This document shows, one piece after another, positions 2,742 to 7,423 of a DNA stretch of 49,683 nt; position 1 is the first letter of the stretch; each line of letters begins with the position of its first letter. The position numbers and the translations under genes were made by a program. The notes beneath the pieces were generated by a model. It was not told the origin of the DNA. It saw only the letters and a program-made list of their open reading frames with translations, and did not search any database. Origin of the DNA: Legionellaceae bacterium (lineage in GTDB: Bacteria; Pseudomonadota; Gammaproteobacteria; UBA12402); contig PANR01000024.1 of NCBI GenBank assembly GCA_002707695.1, positions 1-49,683 on the forward strand. The letters run 5' to 3'.

Positions 2742-3485
2742 ATGAGAAAAAAATTTATTGGCGGTAATTGGAAGATGAACGGCGATGCCGTGAGTGCAAA
2801 GCACTTGGTTGAATCTTTGCGCGTCGGGTTGTCGTCGGTTGAAAGTGATGTTGTTGTGTTCCCCCCTTTTGTTTATTTAACTCAAGTGATCGACCAATTG
2901 CGTGATTCTCGTATCAAGGTTGGTGCGCAGAACCAATGTGAACAAGCAGAGGGCGCATTTACCGGTGAGGTTTCAGCGGCCATGTTAAACGATATTGGTT
3001 GTCAGTATGTTGTGTTGGGCCATTCAGAGCGTCGTCATATATACGGCGAAACGGATGCACAGATTGCTGAAAAATTTGTGTTGGCTCAAGACAATCACTT
3101 GGTGCCAGTTCTGTGTGTGGGTGAAACGTTGGATGAGCATGAAGCTGGCGATACTGAAAAAGTGGTGCTCAAACAGCTTGATGCAGTAATTACGCGCTCT
3201 GGCATATCAAAATTTGACCAATGCGTGCTGGCTTATGAGCCGGTTTGGGCCATTGGAACGGGCAAAACAGCCACGCCTGAGCAGGCCCAGGCAGTTCATA
3301 GCATATTGCGCGAGCATTTATCGAAACAAGATGCTAAGATTGCCGACTCGCTGCGCATCATCTACGGCGGCAGCGTGAAAGCAGCTAATGCGCGAGCAAT
3401 TTTTGCTCAGCCCGATGTGGATGGGGGCTTGATAGGTGGCGCATCGCTAAAAGCCGATGAGTTTATCGCCATTTGCGACGTTTGA
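2742..3485 (+). CDS. tpiA: Triosephosphate isomerase
   Basis: GNWKMN, GHSERR, AYEPVWAIGTG, YGGSV and GGASL motifs. Confidence 0.99.
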   Translation: MRKKFIGGNWKMNGDAVSAKHLVESLRVGLSSVESDVVVFPPFVYLTQVIDQLRDSRIKVGAQNQCEQAEGAFTGEVSAAMLNDIGCQYVVLGHSERRHIYGETDAQIAEKFVLAQDNHLVPVLCVGETLDEHEAGDTEKVVLKQLDAVITRSGISKFDQCVLAYEPVWAIGTGKTATPEQAQAVHSILREHLSKQDAKIADSLRIIYGGSVKAANARAIFAQPDVDGGLIGGASLKADEFIAICDV

Positions 3486-3501
3486 TTAAGAAGAGGTAAA
3501 C

Positions 3502-3834
3502 ATGCAGCAAATTATATTGATTTTTCATTTGTTATTCGCAGTCGCATTGATTGCCATCGTGTTGATACAACAAGGTAAAGGGGCAACCATGGGCGCATCT
3601 TTTGGCGCCGGTGCTTCGCAAACCGTTTTTGGCAGCCAGGGTTACGGCAGCTTTTTGATGAAGGTGACAGGCAGTCTGGCATTGTTGTTTTTTGCAACCA
3701 GTTTGGTGCTGGGTTATTTGTCTGCAAAAGAAGTGAGACTGGCGCATAGCAACAGTTCACTATCTCATGCTGCGCAAATGGCTAAGACCATACAGCAACC
3801 GAAACAAAATGCGACAACGAACGTTAAGAAATAA
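3502..3834 (+). CDS. secG: Preprotein translocase subunit SecG
   Basis: QQGKGATMGASFGAGASQTVFGS motif, two hydrophobic segments, tpiA-secG-tRNA-Leu synteny. Confidence 0.97.
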   Translation: MQQIILIFHLLFAVALIAIVLIQQGKGATMGASFGAGASQTVFGSQGYGSFLMKVTGSLALLFFATSLVLGYLSAKEVRLAHSNSSLSHAAQMAKTIQQPKQNATTNVKK

Positions 3835-3856
3835 GCCAGCGCACATCAATCAATTT

Positions 3857-3975
3857 TTGGATTTGTAAATTGGGTGTGCTTAAACAAACCTTAATTGGCC
3901 ATGGACGGCCAATTTAGAGCGACCATGGATCGGCTTGAGCGTGTTTGTTTAAGCGCACCCAATTCGCAAGTCCAA
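3857..3975 (+). repeat. Structured dispersed repeat, GGA-loop family copy A
   Basis: ~33-nt imperfect terminal inverted repeats enclose AATTGGCC-ATGGAC-GGCCAATT, then GAGC, CC-ATGGAT and TTGAGCGTG; same core layout as copies at 20326, 49437 and 49567. Confidence 0.85.
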
Positions 3976-3999
3976 GACTTAAGAAAACCCACGTTATTT

Positions 4000-4086
4000 G
4001 TCGAAGTGGTGGAATTGGTAGACACGCCATCTTGAGGGGGTGGTGGCCTCACGGCTGTGCGGGTTCGAGTCCCGCCTTCGACACCA
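4000..4086 (+). tRNA. tRNA-Leu (anticodon GAG)
   Basis: Acceptor stem GTCGAAG/CTTCGAC, anticodon arm CCATC-TTGAGGG-GGTGG, long variable arm, GGTTCGAGTCC T-arm and encoded CCA. Confidence 0.97.
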
Positions 4087-4151
4087 TGTTTTTTATCCTC
4101 CAATAACGCAATTTTATAAATTTATGTCTCATCTTATAAGTTGCATAATTT

Positions 4152-5366
4152 TTAACTGAGCAGGCCTAGCATAAAAAGCGGGATTTTATTTTTTGTGCCA
4201 ATGAGTATGTCGTCGGCAAAAATATAAGCGTTTTTTTGATCCTTTATTTGTTTGGTGGTTTTATTTTTGCCGCCAATTTCAAAAACATTATCATCGATTT
4301 TAAAATCGCCGTGTTCGCTATAAAAGACTGATAACCCACTGTTTTGTAGTTGGTTGATGGCAAAAGTTTCTCTAACTTTGCCTAAAAGCATATCTTCAGG
4401 TTGTGCTAGATATGCGGCATAAATCAGATTTGTGTTGTCTGGGTACATCTTGATTGGATTGCGTAGATAAGCTTTGCCAGTTTGCTTTTTATAAAGAGCC
4501 CTAATAAGCCCAGCCTGCTGGAGATAGAGTAAGTAACTTGTGATGTTTTCGTAATCTTTCGACAACGTGTTTGCCAATTTATATGCGCTTAACTCTCCAG
4601 GCTGAGAGTGAGTAATGTATTTGTAGAGTTTCTCGATGGTGAGCAGGGTGGGTGTTTTGATGGAGTGCAGGGTTGCAATATCTTCGTAAATTGTTTTTTG
4701 GATGATATTTTCAATAGCCTGCAACATTTGAAAGTTATCTGAAAAGTTGTTAAGAAATGGAAAGTAGCCTGTTTTTAAGTAATTTTTAAAATGTTTCAAA
4801 GGCTGATTGAGAGGTAGTTTGTCAATGATGGTAGTATGTTCATTGAGTATTTGACTTAAGCTCAAACTAGCTAATTTGATTTTTTGAGTAAATTCCAAAT
4901 ATTCTCGAAAAGAAAACCCGTTTAATCGATAAAGCGTTACACGACGTGATAAATCAAACTTGCTATGAATAATATCAATCATTGAGCTGCCGGAGAAAAC
5001 GATTTTAAAGTCTAGATAGAAGTCAGCAATGTTTTTTAGCTCTTGTTCCCAATTTTGATACTTGTGAATTTCGTCAATGCATAGCAGGCGAATGTCGGTT
5101 GTTTTGTAGAGTGTATCAACAAGATTGAGTAGAGTGTTCTCTAAAAAATACACGTGGTCCGCTGACACATACAGCGAAGTCATTTTTTTTTGATTATAAT
5201 TTAGAATGGTGTGAAGCAGAAAAGTCGTTTTTCCGGTGCCTCTGCTACCTATAATGCCTGTGACGCTATTGTCAAAATTGATCGATTCAAAGCAGTTGCG
5301 GTAGTAAAAATCCCCAGTTTTAAACTGGTCTAATAGCAGCTTTTGTAATTCAAGCAATATTTCCAT
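4152..5366 (-). CDS. AAA_14-family ATPase with DUF4143-like C-terminus
   Basis: Walker A GSRGTGKTT, Walker B LLCIDEIH, FSGSS, YLKTGYFP, RETF and FEIGGK; ATG at 5366 preceded by GAGGCG; AT-rich. Confidence 0.85.
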   Translation of the reverse strand: MEILLELQKLLLDQFKTGDFYYRNCFESINFDNSVTGIIGSRGTGKTTFLLHTILNYNQKKMTSLYVSADHVYFLENTLLNLVDTLYKTTDIRLLCIDEIHKYQNWEQELKNIADFYLDFKIVFSGSSMIDIIHSKFDLSRRVTLYRLNGFSFREYLEFTQKIKLASLSLSQILNEHTTIIDKLPLNQPLKHFKNYLKTGYFPFLNNFSDNFQMLQAIENIIQKTIYEDIATLHSIKTPTLLTIEKLYKYITHSQPGELSAYKLANTLSKDYENITSYLLYLQQAGLIRALYKKQTGKAYLRNPIKMYPDNTNLIYAAYLAQPEDMLLGKVRETFAINQLQNSGLSVFYSEHGDFKIDDNVFEIGGKNKTTKQIKDQKNAYIFADDILIGTKNKIPLFMLGLLS

Positions 5367-5523
5367 TTGACGCCTCAATAATTTGGTTATAACCGAATTA
5401 TATAGAAAAAAGACTTAGGTTTCAACCAAACAGCATAAGTTAACCACAGCTGAATTTTAAAAAATAATAAAAACATAGGGTTATAGGCCAATGCCCTCAT
5501 GGGGCTCGGGTATGGCCAATTTA

Positions 5524-6861
5524 TCAAGGCGGTGGCGGTCCACCTAAGGTTCTTGTCTCTCCCCGAGCGGGCTCGAGTGAATATGGAGGTGGCGCGTCAT
5601 CCCGCGCTTGCGGTGTTAGGCTGTTTGCGGTCAGCGCACCGGGAGGTGCTAAGGGCGCCGAGGGTGCGGGCGCAGTGTCAGTTTTTGATGGTGCAGAAGG
5701 TGCGGGTGCAGCTGCAGCGGCAGCGGTTTCTGGCTCCAGCTCCGAGATTACTGTTTGGGGCGCACAGAGCAGATCAGCGAGAACTTTTATTGCCGCTATT
5801 GCATCATCGGTACAAGGCGTTTTTTCACTGGTAGATGCATCAATTTCAGGCGCTAATCGTTTAATATCGGCATCGATCTTGTCTGAAATGCGTGGTTCAA
5901 ATGCAACTGAGTGATTTTGTTCAAGCTGTATGATGATATTGGCAAGCGTCAACGCGTTTGGTTTTAGTGTATGTCGCGTGGTTTCGGCTGCAACTGAGGT
6001 ATTTAGGCATTCGATGCGTATTAAGCAATACAGCAAAAAACTACGGGCCCTTAATAGTCGTAATTGGCTGATTCTTTCTGGGATAGGGGCCAAGCGGAGT
6101 TCTTCTAATAAAGCTTGGGGTGGTTGGGCCTTGCGTAGGTGTTCGCTAAGCGGTGCGACGCGGCTTGGCCTTGCAAAGTTAGGTTTAACAAGAGGTCTAA
6201 GAAAAGATTCTGCAAGGTTTGAAGAGGCAATAAAATTTCCCATCATTTTTTCCGCAGTGGCAACGGCTGCTTCAGTTTCTGGCACTAGGGTGGTTGATGC
6301 AACAATTATTTTATGTGCATGTGTTTGCGCCAGATGGTTGTACACGGCATGAAAGGCTTCTTTCACACCTTCTCCTGTTTTTGCCGAGCAGCGAAAATAA
6401 GCCTTAGCGCCTATTGCCTCGGCAAACGCAGCGATCTCTTCATCGGCGTAAACCCATTGGCTGGTAACGTCAATTTTATTGACAAACAAAAAGATAGGTG
6501 TGCCAGGGGGGAGAAGTGCTATTCGGCTTCTAATACCAGCAAATTCATCCTGAGCCGTTAAATCTAAACAGGCGATATAGGCGTCGCAAGTTTGATGATA
6601 ACTCTTTACTATCGTGTCAAAGCCAGAGTGGCCAGCAATGTCCCATATCCTGAATTTAAAGAAATAACCTTCGTTCCCAAGTATTTTTATACTATAATCA
6701 GTGCCGATGGTGAGATCCACATCAAATCGAAATTGATCATTTATTTCACGCATGACTAAACTGGTTGCCCCGCCTGCACGTACTGAACGAATGATGAGGT
6801 TGAACAGCATGTTCGGTGCGTCTCTGTCTCTTAGACCGTGGTTTTCGAGAATGATTGGCAT
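5524..6861 (-). CDS. Rab-like small GTPase-domain protein with degenerate P-loop and Pro/Ala-rich tail (candidate effector)
   Basis: TIGTDY (G2/RabF1), FRIWDIAG (G3), NKID (G4), CSAKTGEGV (G5); G1 reads SVRAGGATS; RBS AAGGGGGAG upstream. Confidence 0.85.
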   Translation of the reverse strand: MPIILENHGLRDRDAPNMLFNLIIRSVRAGGATSLVMREINDQFRFDVDLTIGTDYSIKILGNEGYFFKFRIWDIAGHSGFDTIVKSYHQTCDAYIACLDLTAQDEFAGIRSRIALLPPGTPIFLFVNKIDVTSQWVYADEEIAAFAEAIGAKAYFRCSAKTGEGVKEAFHAVYNHLAQTHAHKIIVASTTLVPETEAAVATAEKMMGNFIASSNLAESFLRPLVKPNFARPSRVAPLSEHLRKAQPPQALLEELRLAPIPERISQLRLLRARSFLLYCLIRIECLNTSVAAETTRHTLKPNALTLANIIIQLEQNHSVAFEPRISDKIDADIKRLAPEIDASTSEKTPCTDDAIAAIKVLADLLCAPQTVISELEPETAAAAAAPAPSAPSKTDTAPAPSAPLAPPGALTANSLTPQARDDAPPPYSLEPARGETRTLGGPPPP

Positions 6862-6970
6862 AATGAGCTCCCCCTTGTGATGCTTTACTCCATTGTAACA
6901 CGGGCTTGCATTTTAGAATAGACGTGAAAAAATATTGTCCACTGCATAAAATTTGCCATCGGCTTATGCC

Positions 6971-6999
6971 TTGAAAGTTAGTGGTGAAAGCGTTATAAA
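6971..6999 (+). promoter_or_regulatory. Candidate sigma70 promoter of the nuo operon
   Basis: TTGAAA-N17-TATAAA, 67 nt upstream of nuoA. Confidence 0.5.
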
Positions 7000-7066
7000 T
7001 GGTCACGTTCAGTTCTTAATGATTCTGCTAAAACAGATCGGCAATATGTGAGGAAATAACGACAAT

Positions 7067-7423
7067 ATGCTCGGCCAATTTTTTCCAATTCTCGTGTTTA
7101 TCGGTGTGGGTATATTTTTTGGCCTGGCTCCCATCGTCATGGGCTTAATCCTTGGGCCAAATCGTGGTTACAAAGAAAAAACTTCCACCTATGAATGCGG
7201 GTTTGAAGGGGTAGGTAATTCACGCTTACCTTTTGATGTGCGTTATTATCTTGTCGCTATTTTATTTATCTTATTTGATTTGGAAGTCGCATTTCTTGTG
7301 CCTTGGGCAGTAGTTTTCCGCAAGCTTGGATGGTTTGGCATGCTCAGTATGTTAGTTTTTATTCTCCTGCTTCTCGTTGGTTTCATCTATGAGTGGAAAA
7401 AAGGAGCCTTAGAGTGGGAATAA
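7067..7423 (+). CDS. nuoA: NADH-quinone oxidoreductase subunit A
   Basis: [13 protein letters not shown] and [11 protein letters not shown] motifs. Confidence 0.98.

Follow-up and report, generated by a model that had tools for sequence, protein, structure and literature searches.

A Rab-fold protein with an altered P-loop and a PPxY-bearing tail as a candidate injected adaptor in a Dot/Icm-bearing Legionellaceae bacterium

The genus Legionella has been reported to encode 184 proteins resembling small GTPases, of which 71 are Rab-like; fusions to other domains are frequent, 16 that were tested are translocated, and the structural features of Rabs are stated to be conserved (10.1101/350777). 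A review lists the function and targets of the Rab-like effectors as unknown and states that evidence for a canonical GTPase cycle is lacking (PMC7542358). Among eukaryotic pseudoGTPases, CENP-M and the pG1/pG2 domains of p190RhoGAP bind no nucleotide, and Rnd1/Rnd3 and the N-terminal domain of p190RhoGAP hold GTP that they do not hydrolyse (PMC10211241). Here we describe P0001, a protein encoded in a 49,683-nucleotide stretch of DNA from a Legionellaceae bacterium (contig PANR01000024.1, positions 1 to 49,683 of the forward strand, assembly GCA_002707695.1; this whole stretch is the window), which combines a predicted Rab fold, a P-loop without its lysine and a C-terminal tail with a PPxY motif.

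We read P0001 as an injected, non-cycling Rab-fold adaptor that would recruit host WW-domain proteins, and we put the probability of this at about 0.45. Among bacterial Rab-like effectors, the family formed by P0001 and two relatives (P0005 and P0008) is defined, at the level of sequence, by a Ser/Ala P-loop in an otherwise intact pocket, by loss of the catalytic Gln and by a conserved PPxY. As far as their descriptions go, Legionella Rab-like effectors (e.g., Llo1716 and Llo3288 of L. longbeachae) resemble P0001 in having a Rab fold in a Dot/Icm-bearing bacterium, extra C-terminal regions, a patchy distribution and an apparent horizontal acquisition; by the same descriptions, the family-wide replacement of Gly, Lys and Gln and the conserved PPxY set the P0001 family apart. 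The bacterium that encodes P0001 also falls outside the sampled genus Legionella, in a small order apart that counts 14 genomes in our collection. The described eukaryotic pseudoGTPases share with P0001 a GTPase fold without conserved catalytic residues, used in their case as a binding module, and the loss of Gln resembles the class that is GTP-bound and does not hydrolyse. P0001 differs in being bacterial, not eukaryotic, with G1 and partly G3 altered and G2, G4 and G5 intact. Nucleotide-free pseudoGTPases have most of their G motifs degenerate, and the non-hydrolysing class keeps the P-loop Lys; the motif pattern of P0001 thus fits neither class cleanly. Literature searches returned no bacterial Rab-like pseudoGTPase by title or abstract (search with Legionella) and no description of a P-loop-deficient bacterial Rab (search on bacterial Rabs).

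A Rab fold with an altered nucleotide site

The gene and the motifs of its GTPase-like domain lie as follows (positions in the window; aa, amino acids).

5524..6861, minus strand: P0001 coding sequence, 445 aa plus stop, with 0 internal stops (open reading frame (ORF) list and translation)
6868..6876, minus strand: AAGGGGGAG, Shine-Dalgarno-like, upstream of the ATG at 6861 at a distance of 6 nt (seen by direct reading)
6292..6813, minus strand: Rab-fold small-GTPase-like domain, aa 17-190 (Pfam, AlphaFold2, Foldseek)
6757..6792, minus strand: altered P-loop (G1), aa 24-35, IRSVRAGGATSL; the first Gly is Ser26 and the Lys is Ala32
6694..6711, minus strand: switch I/G2, TIGTDY, aa 51-56; Thr51 is kept
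6628..6645, minus strand: G3 and start of switch II, WDIAGH, aa 73-78; Asp74 is kept and the catalytic Gln is His78
6469..6480, minus strand: G4 (guanine specificity), NKID at aa 128-131; no family member departs from N, K and D
6379..6390, minus strand: G5, CSAK, aa 158-161, guanine base contact; C158-S159-A160-K161-T162-G163 are invariant in all three

The position of the Shine-Dalgarno-like sequence favours the long start at M1 over M18. Logan contigs from three runs of a single study (X1-X3) show 0 differences from the P0001 gene wherever they cover it; this coverage has holes, for instance in X1 over 6674-6825. The P-loop codons are covered without a difference by a second-sample contig (X3 record 9) at a low depth of 2.4, a contig that is perhaps not independent, as its study may be the source of the assembly. 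The source assembly comprises 1.35 Mb in 56 contigs (61.8% complete, 1147 ORFs, GC content 0.435), and its only other "Ras" matches are Era and MnmE.

A sequence-only reading of this DNA had pointed to positions 6327-6807, which correspond to residues 19-178 of P0001 on the minus strand, as a Rab mimic with a disabled P-loop. Its quoted strings are all in the translation (FNLIIRSVRAGGATSLVMR at aa 20-38, TIGTDY at 51-56, KFRIW at 69-73, WDIAGH at 73-78, NKID at 128-131 and CSAK at 158-161). Its description of the motifs, with Ser for the P-loop Gly, Ala for Lys and His for Gln, and with NKID, CSAK, TIGTDY and KFRIW kept, is accurate. The alignments of P0001 to Rab14 and Rab1, the best matches among PDB sequences (E-values of 9e-15 to 1e-14), indeed run without gaps through the P-loop region.

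Both sequence and predicted structure place the domain with Rabs. Pfam Ras (PF00071) matches aa 29-177 with an E-value of 1.2e-20 and 74.2 bits (cut-off 21.6), beginning at profile position 9, with the first strand and the P-loop aligning poorly, and the Roc, EF-Tu and Arf families score far below Ras. All 60 of 60 chains among the matches listed by phmmer against PDB sequences were Rab or Rab-like, with 24-28% identity between P0001 and eukaryotic Rab1, Rab8, Rab10 and Rab14. We built an AlphaFold2 model of full-length P0001 from an 82-row alignment. Its G domain spans aa 17-190; over aa 21-180, a stretch that takes in the P-loop, the predicted local distance difference test score (pLDDT) is 90-98 in each 10-residue block. 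Foldseek searches of the PDB with this model returned Rab8, Rab10, Rab4, Rab1, Rab5, Rab3 and Rab11 as top matches, and GTP-analogue forms are frequent among them; of the first 30 matches listed, 29 have a template-modelling (TM) score, normalised to the target, of 0.86-0.91 and an rmsd (root-mean-square deviation) between 1.5 and 2.1 Å, the exception being a Rab27a fusion construct (0.73 and 4.2 Å). Residues 17-190 are therefore confidently predicted to form a G-domain fold of Rab type, with a six-stranded sheet and five helices, and the structure prediction that had been proposed as a check (TM ~0.9 to Rabs) bears out the earlier assignment. Compared with Rab1, Rab8, Rab10 and Rab14, P0001 shares the fold (rmsd ~1.5 Å over ~170 residues), TIG, the WD of G3, NKxD and SAK; it lacks GxxxxGK, the catalytic Gln, a C-terminal Cys and the helix-3 Trp, and its RabF3 and RabF4 are not conserved.

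Relatives of P0001 are few. An exhaustive HMMER search of 1.84 billion cluster representatives gave 11,105 matches at E ≤ 0.001 and 4 at E ≤ 1e-30. We retrieved sequences for 21 of the top matches; most high scorers are tandem-Rab proteins in which several domains sum, and the true relatives are just two, P0005 with 243 aa and P0008 with 247 aa, the pairwise identities among the three being 33-41%. When a profile of the three members was run against a collection of 5.8 billion proteins, P0005 scored 422 bits, P0008 398 bits and the next protein 105 bits, and a word-index search with full P0001 returned a single match, a fragment of itself. Scans of metagenome and genome contigs for the loci of P0005 and P0008 gave only distant Rab-likes (compost metagenomes, Heimdall/Hod-archaeota). 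The other genomes of its family, which here is equivalent to its order, number 13 and yielded no relative of P0001, and there was no subfamily member in 400 sampled genomes of the class or in 40 relatives, where LepA, IF2, Era and ordinary small GTPases were found instead. Ordinary or Rab-like small GTPases are present in 44 of the 400 class genomes, scoring at most 91 bits vs. 353 bits for P0001 itself.

We then compared the three members, column by column, with their 79 nearest single-domain relatives. All three carry Ser and Ala at the first-Gly and Lys columns, where 77 of the 79 relatives have Gly and 78 have Lys (the remaining row being a gap); P0001 keeps Gly31 and Thr33, and the canonical GxxxxGK[ST] is not formed. 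The catalytic-Gln position is H, G and H in the three members and Q in 65 and H in 3 of the 79 relatives. The G2 Thr, present in 78 of 79 relatives, is retained, with T51, I52 and G53 invariant across the family. Arg25 is also invariant in the family, at a column that holds I, L, V or A in 74 of 79 relatives. Individual members depart further: P0005 has a 3-residue insertion within the P-loop, and in P0008 a Ser replaces the Gly of DxxG.

At a conservation level of at least 70% in the 79 relatives there are 42 columns, of which 20 are kept in all three members, including Gly31, Thr33, Thr51, the Trp-Asp of G3, NKxD and SAKTG. Another 20 vary within the family, mainly at switch II and RabF3/F4 positions, and exactly 2 show an identical change in all three, namely G to S26 and K to A32. 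The varying columns include T75, G77, Q78, E79, Y88, Y89 and R90 (switch II, RabF3/RabF4), and at the W113 column the conserved helix-3 Trp is lost. By the motif definitions we use from general knowledge, RabF1-like TIGTDY and the W-D of RabF2 are present and the RabF3/RabF4 columns are variable. The earlier claim that the Rab interaction surface is kept holds only in part, as switch II and RabF3/RabF4 vary among the three.

Since S26 and A32 are common to three proteins that are only 33-41% identical, they point to a selected change and not to decay, and the invariance of the Mg and guanine contacts (G2 Thr, G3 Asp, NKxD and SAK) in all three suggests that the pocket is still under selection. 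In all canonical P-loop NTPases, the beta and gamma phosphates are contacted by the P-loop Lys, and its loss is expected to cut nucleotide affinity by orders of magnitude. We know of no role for NKxD and SAK in the Ras superfamily besides holding guanine. With the G1 Lys and the G3 Gln absent, P0001 fits a pseudoGTPase by its motifs, as had been proposed; the accompanying idea that it has lost nucleotide binding fares less well, as the intact guanine pocket argues against it. Altered P-loops of this kind are rare among the 275 other retrieved Rab-like domains: 17 fail GxxxxGK[ST], of which 9 are N-terminally truncated and 7 still have Gly-Lys. The sole full-length P-loop without Lys among them is that of P0082, a metagenomic protein unrelated to the P0001 family.

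The C-terminal extension and a possible route into a host

Beyond what the sequence-only reading described, P0001 has a 255-residue extension after its GTPase domain and, within it, a PPxY motif conserved in the family.

5764..6117, minus strand: helical region, aa 249-366, found in P0001 only and absent from P0005 and P0008
5527..5760, minus strand: Pro/Ala-rich disordered tail, aa 368-445, with pLDDT <50 over aa 368-423 and 427-445 and no secondary structure
5581..5592, minus strand: PPPY at aa 424-427, a PPxY that fits the class-I consensus for WW-domain ligands, with its distance from the C-terminus being 18 residues

The PPxY lies 18, 16 and 19 residues from the C-terminus in P0001, P0005 and P0008, respectively, and its flanks are similar, with Ala-Pro-Pro in the stretch that precedes it and Ser/Thr-x-Glu/Lys-Pro in the one that follows. 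Within a stretch whose block means are 37-45, residues 424-426 of P0001 have a pLDDT of at least 50. None of the 265 other retrieved relatives has a PPxY in its last 35 aa, and 5 of the 1147 ORFs of the source genome do. One of those five, a 785-aa ORF on contig C40 (7-2364, plus strand), has a Pro-rich C-terminal tail with PPGY.

PPxY is the class-I consensus for WW-domain ligands, read for example by NEDD4-family HECT ligases, and to our knowledge it has no reader in bacteria. Adaptors and late domains that recruit NEDD4-family WW-HECT ligases through PPxY include Ndfip, ARRDC and viral late domains; the P0001 tail appears similar to these in presenting a canonical PPxY in a predicted disordered, Pro-rich region. 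Our literature search found, among the matches listed, no PPxY attached to a Rab-fold domain. There is a bacterial parallel in that NEDD4L acts on Ehrlichia TRP effectors, of which TRP32 itself is described as being without a canonical PPxY (PMC5768648).

The helical region is modelled with pLDDT of 52-81 per 10-residue block over aa 241-290 and of 40-72 thereafter, and a single-sequence model of aa 236-370 has a mean pLDDT of 56.5. It has no Pfam match at E ≤ 0.1, the best being a sub-threshold hit to DUF5327 (E 0.17, 13.1 bits, cut-off 27). The word-index and 1.84-billion searches gave no homologue outside its own genome sequence, and structure rows from the Atlas reached a TM score of at most 0.36, with nothing usable. 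As had been noted before, P0001 has no C-terminal Cys for prenylation: it ends in GGPPPP, and its last Cys is C366 of 445, 79 residues from the end. The N-terminus of P0008 begins with Met-Gly and has Ser at position 6, which we take to fit the eukaryotic N-myristoylation consensus and which would presumably give a lipid anchor in a host cell; the P0001 start has no such Met-Gly.

The source genome contains a Dot/Icm region-II-like cluster (contig C46, locus L071, 2700-11481, minus strand), with matches to icmL/dotI (189 bits), icmK/dotH (276 bits) and DotG/IcmE (302 bits). The DotG/IcmE protein is short (568 aa), its 302 bits lie below the equivalog cut-off of 750, and only the C-terminal part is matched. 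The locus also encodes a 1006-aa VirB4-like ORF of IcmB/DotO size and four small ORFs without Pfam matches; two LuxR-type regulators border it, as do phosphate ABC transporter genes. The Pfam, PDB and Foldseek matches together with this cluster show a Rab-fold protein in a Dot/Icm-bearing bacterium, which supports that side of the sequence-only reading, and P0001 is probably injected through Dot/Icm into a eukaryotic host.

Ancestry, mechanism and competing readings

The family is monophyletic with support of 99 both in a FastTree phylogeny of 278 domain rows and in an IQ-TREE phylogeny (LG+C20) of 85 rows, the latter omitting the long-branch rows L017b and P0109, 128 unlabelled rows and a random 64 of the 96 rows with a C-terminal Cys. 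In the 85-row tree the family stands outside a starred clade (support 95) of 20 ordinary bacterial and 7 Asgard rows, in a polytomy with C-terminal-Cys Rabs, Heimdall-type Rabs and long bacterial Rab-likes. Rab-likes of 250-380 aa from other genomes of the class (L006, L044, L045, L049, L055, L058 and L059) likewise stand outside the ordinary bacterial single-domain clade and group with eukaryote-type Rabs. In a split-half profile test, the three members scored 13-43 bits higher on a eukaryote-type (C-terminal-Cys) profile than on a bacterial one; 51 of 51 held-out eukaryote-type rows fell the same way and 12 of 16 bacterial rows the opposite way. The margin of P0001 itself is inflated, because the eukaryote-type rows were chosen as best matches to P0001. 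Eukaryotic ancestry of the family is, on these comparisons, the better guess.

The mechanism we favour, a non-cycling adaptor, would work as follows. Without the Lys, the Rab-shaped domain would hold nucleotide weakly and, with NKxD and SAK kept, would probably still sample guanine nucleotide; without the Gln, hydrolysis would be poor, and the protein would not cycle under the control of guanine nucleotide exchange factors (GEFs) as well as GTPase-activating proteins (GAPs). It would instead show a Rab partner or membrane of the host a Rab-like face that stays fixed, with the helical region (aa 249-366) perhaps replacing prenylation in targeting P0001 to membrane or partner. The PPxY tail would recruit a WW-domain protein of the host, for which a HECT ubiquitin ligase of NEDD4 type is the most plausible candidate, and the adaptor would then join this ligase with the Rab partner or the vacuole membrane, or would itself be ubiquitinated and sorted.

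A more specific form of the proposal, which we hold more loosely and think rather doubtful, is that P0001 represents a new kind of effector, a Rab-shaped, switch-less adaptor that hijacks NEDD4-type WW-HECT ligases. Locked into an "on-like" shape, the domain would then sit on a membrane marked by a Rab or on a Rab partner, the removal of Lys and Gln would put it beyond the reach of GEFs and GAPs of the host, and the guanine pocket would be retained for stability, while the PPxY-bound ligase would ubiquitinate the Rab partner or the vacuole surface.

If this more specific form is correct, no PPxY adaptor with a Rab fold would precede it, and no pseudoGTPase would have been shown before it to serve in virulence or symbiosis. 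More generally, the family could show how a pathogen or symbiont employs the Rab shape without the switch. Two P-loop residues and the Gln are changed, the rest of the pocket is kept and a candidate eukaryotic ligase-recruiting motif is added. The adaptor reading predicts weak or absent nucleotide binding, no response to GAP or GEF and PPxY-dependent WW binding, and it would extend Rab mimicry beyond the genus Legionella to a small Dot/Icm-bearing order. The family offers a natural experiment on whether bacterial Rab-like effectors use the GTP/GDP cycle, a question raised by the available account of these effectors (PMC7542358).

Several observations weigh against the injected adaptor. Given that switch II and RabF3/RabF4 vary, a common surface for a specific Rab partner is not evident. 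The PPxY is four residues in Pro-rich tails, and its recurrence could be partly compositional. Dot/Icm genes are known for the genome of P0001 alone among the three family members, and IcmS (PF12608) was not found in this ~62% complete genome, a miss that is uninformative because the genome is incomplete and the control was silent in every genome. Nesting of the family within eukaryotic Rabs has no tree support, and an approximately unbiased (AU) test does not reject its union with the 20 bacterial rows (p 0.458, lnL difference 2.16). The claim that the gene is host-derived is favoured by the profile scores, and the AU result is compatible with a bacterial origin. Finally, the gene shares its insert with an ATPase gene (described below), and this candidate phage-defence neighbour permits a non-effector reading of the islet.

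The alternative that survives best, though we regard it as unlikely, is that P0001 is an atypical but working guanine-nucleotide switch in which Arg25, or Arg28 of P0001, replaces the Lys, perhaps as a fast-exchanging, GEF-independent Rab mimic that is mostly GTP-loaded. The invariance of Thr51, Thr33, Asp74, NKxD and SAK in all three members at 33-41% identity is what such a switch would keep; Arg25 is a family-specific candidate for the missing charge, fixed here and I, L, V or A in 74 of 79 relatives, and the P0001 model resembles GTP-analogue-bound Rabs. On the other side stand the near-universal Lys (78 of 79 relatives) with its phosphate contact and the replacement of the catalytic Gln by H, G and H; the P-loop insertion of P0005 and the Gly-to-Ser change in the DxxG of P0008 are also hard to square with a precise phosphate site. 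A precedent for an unusual pocket is the "atypical GTPase effector" LegA15 of Legionella, which is described as binding GTP with a Kd of 1.4 uM in a non-canonical pocket and, unlike P0001, has a different, non-Ras fold (PMC9757750).

Taken as a model, the sequence-only reading makes P0001 a dominant-negative decoy, empty of nucleotide, by which a GEF of host Rabs or a GDP dissociation inhibitor (GDI) is trapped, in the manner of S22N- or N121I-type Rab mutants. The Rab-like fold, the missing prenylation site and the low nucleotide affinity that Lys to Ala would predict are all in line with this. GDI binding, however, requires a prenylated tail, which is absent here, and the conservation of NKxD and SAK would go unexplained in a permanently empty protein. 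In the nucleotide-free Rab-GEF complexes that have been analysed (PMC3919270), the P-loop Lys is part of a stabilising hub, paired either to Gln/Asp of switch II or to a GEF's acidic finger, and P0001 lacks both the Lys and the Gln of this hub. As switch II, one of the main GEF contacts, is variable among the three members as well, the GEF trap is weakened, and we now consider it distinctly improbable.

Equally hard to favour is a bacterial-intrinsic role, in which P0001 would stay inside the bacterium as a Ras-like regulator, either diverged from the small-GTPase families of prokaryotes or acting as a partner of the AAA_14 ATPase encoded next to it. The AU result above, the Ras-like matches in 44 of 400 class genomes and the PDC-S01-matching neighbour in the same insert speak for it. 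Yet the free tree puts the family outside the starred bacterial and Asgard clade, the eukaryote-type profile is favoured by the 13-43 bits given above (with the inflated margin of P0001), and the disordered PPxY tail has no bacterial reader that we know of. P0001 also has no PADLOC match, and PDC-S01 is a single-gene candidate with its own promoter-like site and a very different GC content.

That the gene is what remains, in decay or under neutrality, of a Rab-like gene that once worked, a case the sequence-only reading had named as counting against its own model, is very unlikely indeed: hallmark catalytic residues are lost and it is a single copy in a reduced genome, but the 445-codon frame is intact behind a strong Shine-Dalgarno sequence, the same two substitutions are fixed in three diverged proteins that keep 20 other conserved positions, and the domain model has very high confidence.

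The tRNA-Leu insert and other Rab-like proteins

The P0001 gene lies between a tRNA gene and nuoA, which begins at 7067.

4000..4086, plus strand: tRNA-Leu, anticodon GAG (ARAGORN), the left border of the insert
4087..7066, no strand: 2.98-kb insert (2980 nt) from tRNA-Leu(GAG) to nuoA, holding the ATPase gene and the P0001 gene
4152..5378, minus strand: AAA_14/DUF4143 ATPase gene, 408 aa (Pfam AAA_14, E 3.5e-22)
5425-5397: near-consensus promoter-like site of the ATPase gene, 11/12 matches

Four other genomes of the family bear nuoA. In three of them tRNA-Leu(GAG) is upstream of nuoA at distances of 25, 64 and 162 nt and is itself preceded by secG; the neighbourhood differs in the fourth. The order tpiA-secG-tRNA-Leu(GAG)-nuoA is thus conserved in three of the four (window positions 2742-4086 and 7067 onward; loci L066-L069), and the short gap between tRNA and nuoA in these genomes identifies the 2980-nt stretch as an insert at the tRNA. 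We looked at the insert border for an att-like direct repeat of the end of tRNA-Leu and found none. The nuoA query found matches in only 4 of the 13 other family genomes, suggesting that many of these reduced genomes lack complex I.

The ATPase matches PDC-S01 of PADLOC, a candidate single-gene defence system (E 2.3e-30), and P0001 matches 0 PADLOC families at E ≤ 0.01. The GC content of the ATPase gene is 0.355-0.362 vs. 0.435 for the genome. We considered a two-gene defence system of ATPase and GTPase-like protein and rejected it, given that PDC-S01 is a single-gene system, that the ATPase gene has its own promoter-like site, that GC content differs and that P0001 has no PADLOC match. The ATPase is probably separate cargo, outside the Rab-like function.

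Rab-like domains also occur in large proteins. In the same class, locus L033 (contig C17 of genome G352) encodes a giant protein with at least 4 tandem Rab-like domains (an ORF of at least 1199 aa within the locus, in a 2326-aa open frame). The metagenomic protein P0010 (2394 aa) has two Rab-like domains, each after what appear, by eye, to be leucine-rich repeats; its N-terminal Cys-His motif resembles an OTU-type deubiquitinase, and it looks like a multi-domain effector.

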